This document shows, one piece after another, positions 21,001-30,000 of a DNA stretch of 64,000 bases (its first letter is position 1; every line of letters starts with the position of its first letter). Source of the stretch: Escherichia coli (GTDB lineage: Bacteria > Pseudomonadota > Gammaproteobacteria > Enterobacterales > Enterobacteriaceae); NCBI RefSeq assembly GCF_024502345.1, contig NZ_JALDNN010000003.1; one strand, written 5' to 3'. Position numbers: made by a program.

Positions 21001-24000
21001 CAGTCATGCGTGTGCCCGCGATGTCGCGGTGTTTGCGCAGGCCTTATAGACCATTCATCCGAACTATATTGAGGCTTTATAATCCGCCGCGTCTGTGTTT
21101 TCTGATCTGCCAGAATTGCCCGGACCATTTCATCATTAAAAAGCATTCCACGAGTCTTCACTGTGCTGACTCCTTTCACACATGGTTCACACATTGAGAG
21201 GCCTATCCCTCTTTATCAGCCAGGCATACCGAAACTGTCGGTAGTTTTACGGGAACGGGCAACTGCCCCCCTACCTGATAAAGTGGTGTTCTCCCCCAAA
21301 ATTAATCGTATTCCCCATCCACTACCGGCTCAGTCGTAATTTCATATTTCACTCCGCCGGGTACATCCAACGCTTTAGCGACGGACTCACACAGCAATGA
21401 CAAATCATTCAGGGTCATTGGGTATTCAACTTCCAGGCTGTGCAGTGCATTGGCGCTGGCAGCAGCAGCCTTGTCAGCATGACAGGCATTAAAAACGAAA
21501 ACGGTGGTTTTTTCTTGAATAGGCATAGTGCAATCCTCTGAATAATTAGCCCTGTGATCAGGGCGGTTTTTGATTAAATTTAAATGTTCGTTTTCAATAA
21601 TTAGTGAATCTGTTAATCGGGTTGTGACTTATCATTTTCTCCAACCGAAGTGCTGTCGAGAAATGACCATTCTTGTTTGGGGCTTTTATATAATGCACTA
21701 GCCTCAGTACTCATCCACGACTCACAGGCTTTATAAGTCATGCCTTCCTCTCTAACGCGGTCCTTAAAATACGCCCAGGCTTGCAGATCAAGCGGCTGAT
21801 ACTCTTTCAGCGACTGGTCAAGCCTTTCCTTCCAGATTTTCTTCCGATGAGTAAAATGAGGAAAAGCCAGGAATGCATAACTACCTGCAACAAAAAAAAA
21901 GAACAGGAGTCCGCCCCATAGAGAATGTTTGAAAAACACCAGTCCTGGGAAAATCCATGCCACAATGGCAACAAATAAAAGAAGGTGCTCCTTCCCAGTA
22001 GGTTTATTAAAATGCCAGGAAATTGCAATACACTTTAATTTACTAAAGTGATTTTGTTTCTCCTTAATATCGGTCATATATCAGTCCTTACTTATAAAAA
22101 AATGGTTATTATTAGTCTGATGTAAAAGTTACTTTTCAAAACAGTCCCTTTAACGAATTCCGCACCTGCGCTCATTACAACACACACCATTCGGCGCTTT
22201 TTCCGTTAACGGGGCTATTTTCACGTTTTTTGCACGTATGTCTGATTTTGCTGGTGGGCTCACGCCAGCAGGCGGACCATACGTTTCAACAGAGGCCTTA
22301 ACAACGCCGCCGTCCTCTCCCGGCATTCATCCACATGCCGGAACCCCGTCTTTTTCGAAGACTGGGGGCCGGATAACATCCGCAGCTCCCAGATGACTTC
22401 CCGTAAGGTTCCTTCGCGCTCCGGCGAAATACACCCGGCTAATGTCTCCAGAAAGCGTTTTCTTACGGCCCGGTAATACAGACGTTCTTCCGGTTGCTGT
22501 GACGAAATCCGCAGGTTACAGAGGGTCAGGACAGCGTCAAGAGTCCTTGCCTTCAGTTCGTCTCCCGTCCGGGCCAGATGTAGCTGTTGTTCTGTCTCCA
22601 GTTGCGTCGTTATCCACCCCCCCAGAGGGGTTTTGTTGTAGGTGTGCAGTGCCACACAGGCCGCAACACAACACCAGAAGCGCAGTTTCTGCCGCTGCCC
22701 CCGCAGTTTGCGGGCTACGAGCAAGCGATAATCGCTGTCGGTCAGGATCTTGAAACGGCGGCTGGCGAGCAGAGACGGCAGCGGCGTCTGGTCGTTAATG
22801 CCAAGACGTGAATAGGCCTGCCCGCGTTGAGCGAGTCGATGGTACACCGCACCTTTCCCCCGCGAAATTCGGACGGCGCCGTATCTAAGCAGGTACTGTG
22901 CCGCCGCCACAGGGGTAAACTCACCGTCAGACACACGCTGGCGTAATCCGTCATATTCATGCCAGATAATCCAGGATGCCGTGTCTTCATCGACCGTCAG
23001 CTCATCCTCTTCTTCGAATGCAACGATGTTCAGGCCTTCCCCGCTACTCATCAGACTGCGGGAAGCTCGCTCATCCTCCCGACCGTCAAAATAGGCTATT
23101 TCGGATGACGGATCGGACAGCCCGTCAAATGACGTCCCGATACGGCCTTCCGGCAACTTCATCCAGCGTGGTGCTGGCATCGGCGTGCGGGGTACTGGTT
23201 GCATAGCTGGCTCATCGTCGAGAAGATCCAGTGCCCCCCCTTCCCACACCTGGCGGTAAAGTTCAATGGCACGAAATGGGCGCGGGTTAAAGCAATGCAG
23301 TGACCAGAGAAAGTCGATATGCAGCACGTTAGCCTCCTGCACCAGTCGAAACTGCGGCTCCGACATGCGGCGGTTATGCGCGGTATCTTCGATCTCGCCT
23401 GAAAGTAACTTTTCATGCACCGCTGCGGCCCGCTGAGCCTCCACGTAATCGAGGCTGCAACAGATATGGAACAGTCTTTCGGTCAGGGACGACGAGAACA
23501 CATTGGGCTGAAGACGCACATACCCGCCCTCAAACACTTTGCGTCCGATATAATCCCGAAGGCTCCAGTCGTACTGAATTTTGGTCAGGAAACGCTGAAG
23601 GCGGTTGAGACCAGCCTGGTAGCCGTACTTCTCAGGGTCAGTGCGGAGTAAGGTTTCCATCGAGTGATCAATGCCGACGGCGCAGCATAGCGAGCATCCA
23701 TAGCGAGCGCCGCAGGCAGAAGACCGGACAGTGGATTTCTCCGGCGTCCAGATACATTCCCCGGTCGCGTCTTTGTAAAGCGTGGCGAGGCTGAAGTTGT
23801 CCGGCAAAAAGCTTGGCAGCGGAAATCGCGCCAGAGAACCACAGGCCATCAGAAATGACCAGATATCCTGTGCCCGCCACTCTTTCACCGGGTACAGTTC
23901 GCCGCCGTGCTCCGTGAGCGAGACGCTGTCCGCCTGCCCGCCCATTCTTAGGATGTTGTCTGCCCGACGGGCGCTCTCATCATCGCGGGAACCCAGCATC

Positions 24001-27000: not shown

Positions 27001-30000
27001 CCTCGACCGTCAGTTGGGTTGCTGTAGGGATATTTTACCAAAGTCGGCTCTCTGGCTAATAAGTAAGAAGTGATTTTTTTCATTCATTGAAGTTTCTTTC
27101 ATATGGAATGAATATTAATTATTTAAACTGACTCGGCCTATTTTAATTATTATTAATCAGGGTATTTAATGTGCAAATTGGCAGGGCGCTGAATTACCGG
27201 GCATCCATTGCCCGGACAGTTTATTAAAAAAAACTGATAATGCCCCGCCGGAGAATTACGCCAATTCCTGTGAAGGCATGGTCTGGCTGAAAAGTTACTT
27301 TTCCCGGTTGCCCTGCCTTGATCCCGTATCGTTTATACCGGTCTGCTCTTACATCCTACCTGGGCAGCAGCTGGCTACGGTGATCGGGTATTAAAATAGA
27401 ACCGGTCTGTTTTACCGCAGATTCAACGCCCCGCACCTAGCGTAAAATCGCCTTTCCCGGATGCCCTCCTTAGTCGTCCGGCACGATGGCGCTACTCCCA
27501 GCGATAAGGGGTAAAATAGTCCTCGTTAACAGCAAGAAATTCGGTCAGGGAATGCATCGCCTTCGTGTCATATGCCGTCACAATAAAACGGTATCCGTCC
27601 ACCGTTTCGATGTAGCTGATCCCCCGTGGCGTGCAACTGGATTTCACAACTTCCGCCGTCATCATAAACTGCCCTTGCGGGAATTCCGGTGACAGGTAGA
27701 TAAAGCCAGTGGTGGCTGATGACGGGTTGGCATTCATCAGCACGCTGTTAAATTGCTTTCCGTGCCGCGCCGGAATCAACGCGCTCCCCGCTGTCGCCTG
27801 AGTCATCAACTGGCGGATCAGGGTTTCCTCTTTATCTGAGCTGTAGGCGCGAACATCATTTTCAGCCCCGGAGCGTGAGTAGACGCCGACATGAGCAAGA
27901 CGTCGGTACTCGTTACGCATATAGGCATGACAGGATGCACCGGCTCGCCCCTGAAGAGTGACGCCAAAGTCTTCACATAACATCAGTACCTGGCGCAGGT
28001 TTTTGTCATAGACCGTGGCAGAGAGCGCCAGGTTATAGCTGATGAATGTCAGCTCAAAAACCCGGGTATGTGCGTCACTAAGGTGTGCCTCCATGCGGAT
28101 CACTGGTTTCTCCGTCATTGGAAACGGCGTACCGGCCAAGCAGTACGAGGTAACATCGCTAAAACACTCGTCGATCACACTGGCAATGACCGTATCGGCG
28201 TCAATGACAGCCGGAGCTGGAACATAAATCTGAAACTGTCCTTCAGTGCCCGGTTGGATCAGGACGGGGTATAGACGCGGGGAATTGAGTTGTTCGCAGT
28301 CGGCATTGATCAGTTCTGTCCAACCGGGTTTTCCGGTGGGAGCATCAAGGCGAAGACCCAGGTTATCGCAGAAGTCGACGATCTGGCGGGAGTGCTCCAC
28401 CATCACTGCCCCGGAGAGTGTCAGACCGTGCGTAACCATCTGCATCTCACTCGTCCGGGTCTGGGAGTTCTGGGACCAGGGCTGTAATGAAAGCGTCGTC
28501 CGACTTAAGGAGGGAATGATGGTTTCATTCAGAGGTTCAATAAGCTGGCAATGCGCATACAGCCGGGTGGCGAGGAAGTCAAATATGAAGCTTGCCTGTT
28601 GTTTTGTGCTGGCCTGAATATAAAACATCGCATCCATGCCTGAATCCCGGGATGAAATACCGGGTGATGCTGCCAACTTACTGATTTAGTGTATGATGGT
28701 GTTTTTGAGGTGCTCCAGTGGCTTCTGTTTCTATCAGCTGTCCCTCCTGTTCAGCTACTGACGGGGTGGTGCGTAACGGCAAAAGCACCGCCGGACATCA
28801 GCGCTATCTCTGCTCTCACTGCCGTAAAACATGGCAACTGCAGTTCACTTACACCGCTTCTCAACCCGGTACGCACCAGAAAATCATTGATATGGCCATG
28901 AATGGCGTTGGATGCCGGGCAACAGCCCGCATTATGGGCGTTGGCCTCAACACGATTTTACGTCACTTAAAAAACTCAGGCCGCAGTCGGTAACCTCGCG
29001 CATACAGCCGGGCAGTGACGTCATCGTCTGCGCGGAAATGGACGAACAGTGGGGATACGTCGGGGCTAAATCGCGCCAGCGCTGGCTGTTTTACGCGTAT
29101 GACAGGCTCCGGAAGACGGTTGTTGCGCACGTATTCGGTGAACGCACTATGGCGACGCTGGGGCGTCTTATGAGCCTGCTGTCACCCTTTGACGTGGTGA
29201 TATGGATGACGGATGGCTGGCCGCTGTATGAATCCCGCCTGAAGGGAAAGCTGCACGTAATCAGCAAGCGATATACGCAGCGAATTGAGCGGCATAACCT
29301 GAATCTGAGGCAGCACCTGGCACGGCTGGGACGGAAGTCGCTGTCGTTCTCAAAATCGGTGGAGCTGCATGACAAAGTCATCGGGCATTATCTGAACATA
29401 AAACACTATCAATAAGTTGGAGTCATTACCGAAATACCGAAAAGTTTCATTTTTTACCTTAATGGATGAGCGATTTATAATCATGCGCCGACAGGTGGAC
29501 GTTATGTACGCCATCGTTCCACTCAAAGAATAGCCGATATTTTGAATTAACTCGAATGGAAGAATACCGGTTTGCGGTCATTCTTAAGCGTTCGTACCGC
29601 AAACTACCAGATAACAATTCGCGTTCGTTTTTAACATTATTTAACGTTTCCAGTCTGCATGAAATCGCATTAATCAGTTCAGCAGGAATGCCTGCCGTGG
29701 ATTTTCCATTACGGAAAAACTTTTCCAATCGCCTGTCTTTAAATGAATGGATCATATTTTCCTCCGTAACGAAATGAGTTTAAATAAATAAGAATTAAAA
29801 AAGCCTAAATCTAATTTATTACATCCCGAGGATTCTGGCTGCGACCGTCAGTTGTTTATCACTTAATGGAAATTTGCGTGATAACGTCGACTTCAGGCTG
29901 TTCAAAAAACTGTTCTCGCCGTCTTGCTGCGTGATGGCGTCCACCAGTTCTTGGTGGTTCTGACACCAGAGGTTGAACGCGGAAGTCTTTGATTGAACAG

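Follow-up and report, generated by a model that had tools for sequence, protein, structure and literature searches.

An orphan DndC-clade protein with a novel fused domain, encoded in the backbone of an IncHI1-type plasmid from Escherichia coli

The window analysed in this study is a stretch of 64,000 nt from Escherichia coli (contig NZ_JALDNN010000003.1, assembly GCF_024502345.1), consisting of backbone DNA of an IncHI1-type conjugative plasmid. On its minus strand, at 22260..24635, lies a gene for a 791-aa protein that is best classed as a DndC-clade orphan to which a novel domain is fused, and not as DndC proper, since its score stays under the curated cut-off and the DndC operon context is lacking. 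An active PP-loop, Fe-S enzyme of DndC type is indicated by homology, by catalytic residues that do not vary and by strong purifying selection. The protein is tentatively read here as a catalytically competent stand-alone enzyme of the DndC clade with a modification or counter-defence role that serves the plasmid, an interpretation towards which we lean without giving it quite even chances.

The initial annotation had reported an 809-aa open reading frame (ORF) with a PP-loop and a cysteine cluster at this locus. This ORF is real (22260-24689, minus strand), and both SGGKDS and CGARYGCSLC are present. The start is most likely M19, the ATG at 24635, which yields 791 aa; it was preferred because AGGA is found 8 nt upstream, because homologues from IncHI2 plasmids and beyond align from that methionine, and because the RefSeq annotation is also of 791 aa (WP_000275146.1). 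With this numbering, SGGKDS corresponds to residues 82-87 and CGARYGCSLC to residues 308-317. Salmonella Typhi CT18 has a 99.9% identical copy on its plasmid pHCM1, the dN/dS of 0.065-0.17 denotes purifying selection, and the structure model of the full-length protein is confident (pLDDT 87). As a plasmid backbone gene it was sequenced long ago (pHCM1, IncHI2, IncC), and its database entries go back to the first sequenced IncHI and IncA/C plasmids, under the generic label 'PAPS reductase family'. It is not a gene of known function; in the literature searched, no paper was found that characterises it or its function.

There is a strong sequence case for placing the N-terminal domain, residues 56-351 (23583..24470, minus strand), among the PP-loop ATP-pyrophosphatase domains of the DndC clade. 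When 29 family members were compared, profile against profile (hhalign), with nine canonical DndC sequences, residues 56-351 aligned with a probability of 100% and an E-value of 6.5e-46. When DndC, PAPS_reduct and BrxP profiles were compared, a check proposed with the initial annotation, the DndC clade was by far the best (PADLOC DndC models at 2e-37, BrxP at 1.8e-5). The NCBIfam models PRK06850 and DndC (TIGR03183) matched at 3.8e-37 and 8.4e-33, respectively, the latter alignment spanning only profile positions 7-302 of 447, and Pfam returned PAPS_reduct alone (E 3.2e-5). The PADLOC MTase_II model PDLC03333 matched residues 81-355 (E 4.5e-23). All 29 homologues, the most divergent at 25% identity, keep SGGKDS and five cysteines (Cys182, 294, 308, 314 and 317), and these cysteines align with invariant cysteines of the nine canonical DndC sequences, the CxxC dyad included. 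The cysteine motifs (RxC, ECx, xCG and GCxxC) were taken as ligands of a [4Fe-4S] cluster, the binding of which is a prediction.

Behind this domain, about 400 residues had been described as unassignable. They indeed match no described family or solved fold; the region is really of about 440 residues, in two parts. The first, residues 346-640 (22716..23600, minus strand), is a family-specific conserved domain of 295 aa that matches no family (no hit in NCBIfam or PHROG) and has no solved structural relative. Modelled alone, it gave a confident fold (pLDDT 89, pTM 0.86), and R360, P377, D396, E399, F429, F454, G505 and R604 are invariant family-wide. A search of its profile against 1.84 billion representative proteins retrieved 461 clusters, 371 of them at E<=1e-10. 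In nearly all 461 clusters the proteins have 560-960 aa and the domain begins at about residue 290-350, so the domain occurs almost only fused behind a DndC-like catalytic domain. Family members with atypical architecture were inspected for extra fused domains, and PAPS_reduct is the sole Pfam partner that recurs. The second part, residues 641-791 (22263..22715, minus strand), is judged from alignment, model and composition to be a variable, basic, all-helical tail; it shows little conservation, and family members of 600-669 aa lack it. The pI is 6.5 for the catalytic domain, 5.5 for the middle domain and 10.1 for the tail.

The distribution of the enzyme is plasmid-specific, and its gene context is solo. 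As determined by tblastn, the family is present in 2,462 of 72,556 PLSDB plasmids (about 3%), 83% of which are predicted to be conjugative, with identities of 99-100% in IncHI1, about 75% in IncHI2 and, for example, 48% in the IncC plasmid pAR060302. It also extends to large plasmids of Citrobacter, Providencia and Shewanella and to megaplasmids of Pseudomonas, Burkholderia and Alteromonas. Phage records contained essentially none, the one full-length match being a mis-filed Salmonella plasmid. A profile search of genome contigs with a 14-sequence alignment gave 6 loci. Across more than 12 neighbourhoods the gene was always single, with no recurring partner family and no linked dndD or dndE. 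The absence of DndA, DndD and DndE partners, noted at the outset, also holds for those ORFs of the window that were scanned with the PADLOC and NCBIfam models, among which no Ssp-type partner was found either. The only Dnd-related linkage in any neighbourhood examined was that of a 669-aa Cronobacter/Salmonella subfamily, with a DndB-family gene (PF14072) and a 93-aa gene directly upstream (Cronobacter locus coordinates 6478-7887). IncC plasmids have ssb, bet, exo, dcm, yfbR and a primase gene near the enzyme gene, among small genes without known function. One neighbourhood includes an N6 methyltransferase, a RecD-like helicase, a primase and an LPD28 protein, another a cytosine methyltransferase, ParA and DprA, and other loci hold unrelated genes.

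DndC is an Fe-S protein with ATP pyrophosphatase activity, for which sulfur is supplied by DndA or IscS (PMC8569181, PMC12707154), IscS being able to replace DndA (PMC8569181). By analogy, the plasmid protein would bind a [4Fe-4S] cluster through its conserved cysteines and would convert ATP to AMP and PPi, activating a phosphate or carbonyl on a nucleic acid, most likely the DNA backbone as for DndC. Persulfide sulfur might be drawn from the host cysteine desulfurase IscS. The 295-aa domain, together with the basic tail in the long forms, may supply the substrate recognition that otherwise comes from DndD/DndE, which would explain the solo gene. The enzyme would act for the plasmid and not in host metabolism, by marking plasmid DNA or otherwise neutralising modification-sensing restriction during establishment. 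This role is suggested by the restriction of the family to plasmids, by the methyltransferase, primase and recombination genes that neighbour it, by the recurrent fusion of the DndC-like domain to DNA methyltransferases (PADLOC PDLC03333), and by the anti-Dnd activity that a Vibrio phage fusion of a PAPS domain with Dam (PAPS::Dam) confers (Piel et al., bioRxiv 10.1101/2021.05.05.442762). A bolder version, in which the protein is a self-contained single-polypeptide enzyme for DNA sulfur modification, with which MOBH-type plasmids (IncHI1, IncHI2, IncC and megaplasmids) carry, erase or mimic a portable phosphorothioate-type mark and so get past modification-sensing barriers in new hosts, is considered quite improbable. 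Among the principal vehicles of multidrug resistance in Salmonella, E. coli, Klebsiella and Vibrio are the IncHI1, IncHI2 and IncC plasmids. If the enzyme does modify DNA or disarm phosphorothioate immunity, it would be a determinant of plasmid host range, and it would represent the first single-protein version of a chemistry thought to need three or four proteins.

Several observations weigh against a DndC-type enzyme with such a role. The scores are far under the curated cut-offs, at 114 (113.9) against 290 (290.4) bits for DndC and 128 against 536 for PRK06850. Composition gives no evident sign of DNA binding, as the catalytic domain and the middle domain are both mildly acidic and the basic tail appears dispensable. 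Canonical phosphorothioation requires DndD and DndE (PMC8569181, PMC12707154), and their replacement by the novel domain is itself a proposal. An in-frame deletion allele of 600 aa without residues 154-346 was found on 37 contigs; carriers of the allele include Citrobacter, Klebsiella and E. coli plasmids and one contig of 4.7 Mb. It joins residue 153 to residue 347 and thereby loses all the Fe-S cysteines, with the PP-loop, the middle domain and the tail kept at 92% identity. As this allele circulates, the lineage carrying it, if no other, can do without the catalytic core. Forms of 484-486 aa, truncated at the 5' end, are common as well.

The position of the gene relative to the origin of transfer (oriT) is a further point of this kind. 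The gene belongs to a single block of about 35 small genes, all on the minus strand, at about 9.2-30.3 kb of the window. No relaxase and no oriT were found in the window. On pHCM1, this block comes right after mobI, the MobH relaxase gene, traD and four more genes; with the presumed oriT upstream of mobI, it lies about 10-31 kb from oriT on the relaxase side, with the DndC-like gene at about 31 kb. The relaxase side usually enters the recipient last (PMC11541004), and the gene would therefore probably enter late, which weakens the case for early counter-defence. Anti-defence islands of the leading region are located just beyond oriT, opposite the relaxase, with genes on the T-strand (Samuel et al. 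2024). Placement in such an island was considered and is not supported, as the pHCM1 block is on the relaxase side, which would be the lagging side if IncHI1 transfer follows the usual rule.

The enzyme had initially been grouped with five upstream genes, described as unrecognisable, several of them strongly acidic, in two or three transcription units, the whole being proposed as an undescribed DNA-modification or anti-defence module. The five proteins are indeed without a match in Pfam, NCBIfam, PADLOC and PHROG, and searches of PDB sequences (p393, p268 and p148 included) gave no match. Four are acidic (268, 148, 87 and 394 aa, the last with a pI of 5.25) and one is basic (110 aa), and all five genes are under purifying selection (dN/dS 0.07-0.56). 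There are at least three units, namely p155-higB-p393, p110-p87 and p268-p148-DndC-like. The last probably starts with the gene for p268 (25306..26112, minus strand), a very acidic protein of 268 aa with a pI of 4.34 and a net charge of -31, and continues with that for p148 (24812..25258, minus strand), an acidic protein of 148 aa (pI 4.42) directly upstream of the enzyme. The p148 ORF had been given as 170 aa; it is probably of 148 aa, because its homologues have 149-150 aa. A strong intrinsic-terminator-like hairpin, CCGCCCTTGTGGCGG followed by a T run (26300..26314, minus strand), stands after the 87-aa gene and separates p110-p87 from p268. The 87-aa acidic protein (pI 4.10; 26340..26603, minus strand) is in one unit with the 110-aa basic protein (pI 8.64; 26660..26992, minus strand). 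Homologues of p110 move independently of the enzyme, one adjoining it at a Kluyvera locus and another lying far from it in an Enterobacter plasmid.

A single module of the enzyme and five neighbours was rejected on the results of tblastn and iterated hidden Markov model (HMM) searches of all ORFs at 18 loci. Conserved linkage was absent for three of the five neighbours and largely absent for p268 and p148, which alone stay adjacent to the enzyme, and only in IncHI1/IncHI2-type plasmids. What stands of the initial proposal is the enzyme, as a reasonable candidate for such a role (it is an orphan DndC-type protein whose function was not found in the literature); the multi-gene module does not. 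It is unlikely, but worth weighing, that a smaller module exists in the IncHI plasmids, in which p268 and p148 would be subunits, regulators or inhibitors of the enzyme, or DNA-mimic anti-restriction proteins co-expressed with it. The three genes are contiguous on one strand behind a terminator, and their contiguity is kept in IncHI1, in IncHI2 (58-60% and 75% identity) and in an Enterobacter plasmid with a 54%-identity enzyme, with coordinates that agree in other plasmids; the strong acidity of p268 and p148 and the purifying selection on them would also fit. However, p268 was found in 1,308 plasmids, all of IncHI1/IncHI2 type, compared with 2,462 for the enzyme, and its family is narrow (15 clusters). 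Iterated HMM searches detected no relative of p268 or p148 beside enzyme homologues at <=48% identity (IncC, Cronobacter, Moellerella, Vibrio, Burkholderia and others) or beside that of Kluyvera. The adjacency may thus be inherited backbone synteny, and neither protein has a family or structure match to suggest a function. On the evidence of these comparisons, p268 and p148 are lineage-specific operon mates at most, and not core or obligatory partners. Paralogy among the acidic proteins was also considered, and no similarity was found between p393 and p268 or between p268 and p148. The Enterobacter plasmid with the 54%-identity enzyme carries two tandem copies of p268, of 278 and 268 aa, ahead of the enzyme gene (locus coordinates 7119-9270).

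Distinctly improbable, in our estimation, is the alternative that the protein does not modify plasmid DNA and is a decoy or inhibitor of phosphorothioate immunity that interferes with Dnd, Ssp or type 4 BREX systems of the host, for example by competing for the IscS/DndA sulfur relay or by binding DndD, DndE or restriction components. The novel domain would then be an interaction surface. The phage PAPS::Dam fusion gives its anti-Dnd activity by a mechanism that is not known, and several species maintain the allele in which the Fe-S half is gone but the middle domain and the tail are retained. With the frequent 5'-truncated forms, this suggests that the C-terminal part may have value alone. 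These shortened alleles may simply be decaying genes, however, and the invariance of the PP-loop and the five cysteines down to 25% identity argues for catalysis over mere binding.

A function in host physiology, as a tRNA/rRNA thiolase of the TtuA/TtcA/NcsA type, a metabolite-adenylating enzyme or a true PAPS reductase, is very unlikely. The structural matches of the N-terminal domain are PP-loop enzymes, among them ThiI, QueC, PAPS/APS reductases and two Fe-S thiolases, TtuA and NcsA; the lone Pfam match points the same way. The signature, however, is specifically that of DndC (RxC..LK, GEC and CGxRxGCxxC), DndC models score about 30 orders of magnitude better than those of TtcA or TilS, and a plasmid-restricted gene with DNA-transaction neighbours is ill-suited to sulfate assimilation. 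A genuine PAPS reductase CysH (about 240 aa), as the RefSeq name would have it, was rejected, given that its C-terminal catalytic motif ECG[LIV]H is absent from the 791-aa protein, that the match to PAPS_reduct is only 3.2e-5, and that the architecture is of 791 aa. Just as little probability is given to plasmid defence or exclusion, with the enzyme as a solitary modification component marking resident DNA while a restriction partner, encoded elsewhere on the plasmid or by the host, attacks incoming phages or rival plasmids: DndC, SspD and BrxP all work in defence systems, and an HNH endonuclease and a phage-family 243-aa protein are encoded 1-2 kb downstream, but a dozen diverse neighbourhoods show no recurring nuclease or ATPase partner, and PADLOC found no system components among the window ORFs scanned.

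In line with an IncHI1-type backbone, >=80% of positions 22000-29000 is covered by each of more than 200 PLSDB plasmids with sizes of 200-300 kb. The plasmid context reported initially, with methyltransferases, ParB-like genes and hok/sok, was seen in the window. Downstream are two RepB-type replication genes, genes for a Dam methyltransferase and a DUF4942 methyltransferase-like protein, the beginning of the Tra2 transfer genes, and ParB-like genes. A sok antisense RNA at 10127-10288 (minus strand; Rfam RF01794, 89 bits) confirms a hok/sok system within the same minus-strand block as the DndC-like gene. The phage-type 243-aa protein downstream of the enzyme matches phrog_874 (E 6e-77) and is encoded with a 103-aa protein matching phrog_30913 at 19600-21194 (minus strand), where both genes adjoin that of the HNH endonuclease. 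Positions 1-7400 are a low-GC insertion (about 40%) that interrupts the backbone, related plasmids matching only from 7438 on. The insertion contains an ISNCY transposase gene, an IS5-family transposase gene and three consecutive genes, two of which have tyrosine-recombinase/integrase matches; the trio resembles a recombinase-trio element.

The palindromic motif mentioned in the initial annotation is genuine. The 15-bp palindrome GAAAAGTWACTTTTC has about 13 sites in the window (<=2 mismatches), where 0.23 would be expected, at 9208, 9326, 15885, 22123, 23400, 27289, 31000, 38147, 45124, 50623, 55455, 58509 and 60818. Many of these are intergenic and promoter-proximal, preceding a ParB-like gene, p154, p110, the p155 divergent region, an Ig-like gene and the start of Tra2, and the motif is presumably the operator of a plasmid-wide regulator. 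The site GAAAAGTTACTTTTC (27289..27303) is upstream of p110 and heads the p110-p87 unit, and the same palindrome with one mismatch (22123..22137) lies just past the stop codon of the enzyme gene, upstream of the 154-aa gene. Another palindrome, ATTTAATTAAAT, which precedes both p268 and the enzyme gene, was rejected as a shared operator: it has two sites, a result matched in 5 of 100 shuffles, and it is also absent from the orthologous IncHI2 and Pseudocitrobacter loci.

The most distant of the five neighbours is interrupted by a 768-bp IS1 element (28663..29430, plus strand), flanked by a 9-bp target duplication, GAAATACCG, at 28654-28662 and 29431-29439. IS1 interrupts a 393-aa gene at about codon 5 and severs the body of this gene (27492..28662, minus strand) from its native start at 29450 (MKLFGISS). 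The 394-aa ORF reported initially is hence a chimera, which starts at a TTG in the end of IS1. On uninterrupted plasmids the 393-aa gene begins 8 nt after a HigB/RelE toxin gene. A distant Enterobacter plasmid retains a trio made up of HigB, a DnaJ-type zinc-finger protein and the 393-aa protein, the last of which may act with HigB as an atypical partner or antitoxin. The 393-aa protein has no Pfam match at E<=10, no NCBIfam match at E<=0.1 and no PDB sequence match; the name that NCBI sometimes gives it, 'flavin reductase', was set aside because it comes from source annotations only, with no profile backing.

Compared with known systems, the DndC-like protein shares its superfamily, and presumably its chemistry, with SspD and BrxP. 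The match is weak, however (1.8e-5 for BrxP), and no SspB, SspC or PglZ partner was found in the PADLOC-scanned window ORFs; the CxxC dyad is reported to be unique to DndC and absent from BrxP, which has other extra domains (PMC12839542). CasCysH of type IV-B CRISPR-Cas is likewise an uncharacterised plasmid-borne PP-loop protein of the same superfamily. Its catalytic cysteines are missing and its gene accompanies csf genes (PMC8175902), whereas the DndC-like protein has its cysteines conserved and no csf genes present. The phage PAPS::Dam and PDLC03333 proteins resemble it in having a DndC-like domain on a mobile element, alone, beside or fused with DNA methyltransferases; those proteins are methyltransferase fusions of about 480-540 aa, while the partner domain of the plasmid family is of no known fold. 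The best NCBIfam match is NF005316 (PRK06850, 'hypothetical protein'), which extends slightly beyond the DndC alignment, reaching residue 462 of the 809-aa form over profile positions 16-372 of 505; the remainder is unmatched and the score is below the cut-off, so the protein is not a member. With DndC/DptC (TIGR03183), the sulfur-transfer ATP pyrophosphatase of the phosphorothioation system DndABCDE, the plasmid protein has in common a homologous PP-loop domain of about 295 residues (29% identity), SGGKDS and the five cysteines. The C-terminus of canonical DndC does not align past residue 351 of the plasmid protein, which stands solo, without linked dndB, dndD or dndE (a DndB-family gene accompanies only the 669-aa subfamily), and which adds to the shared domain the 295-aa domain and the tail.

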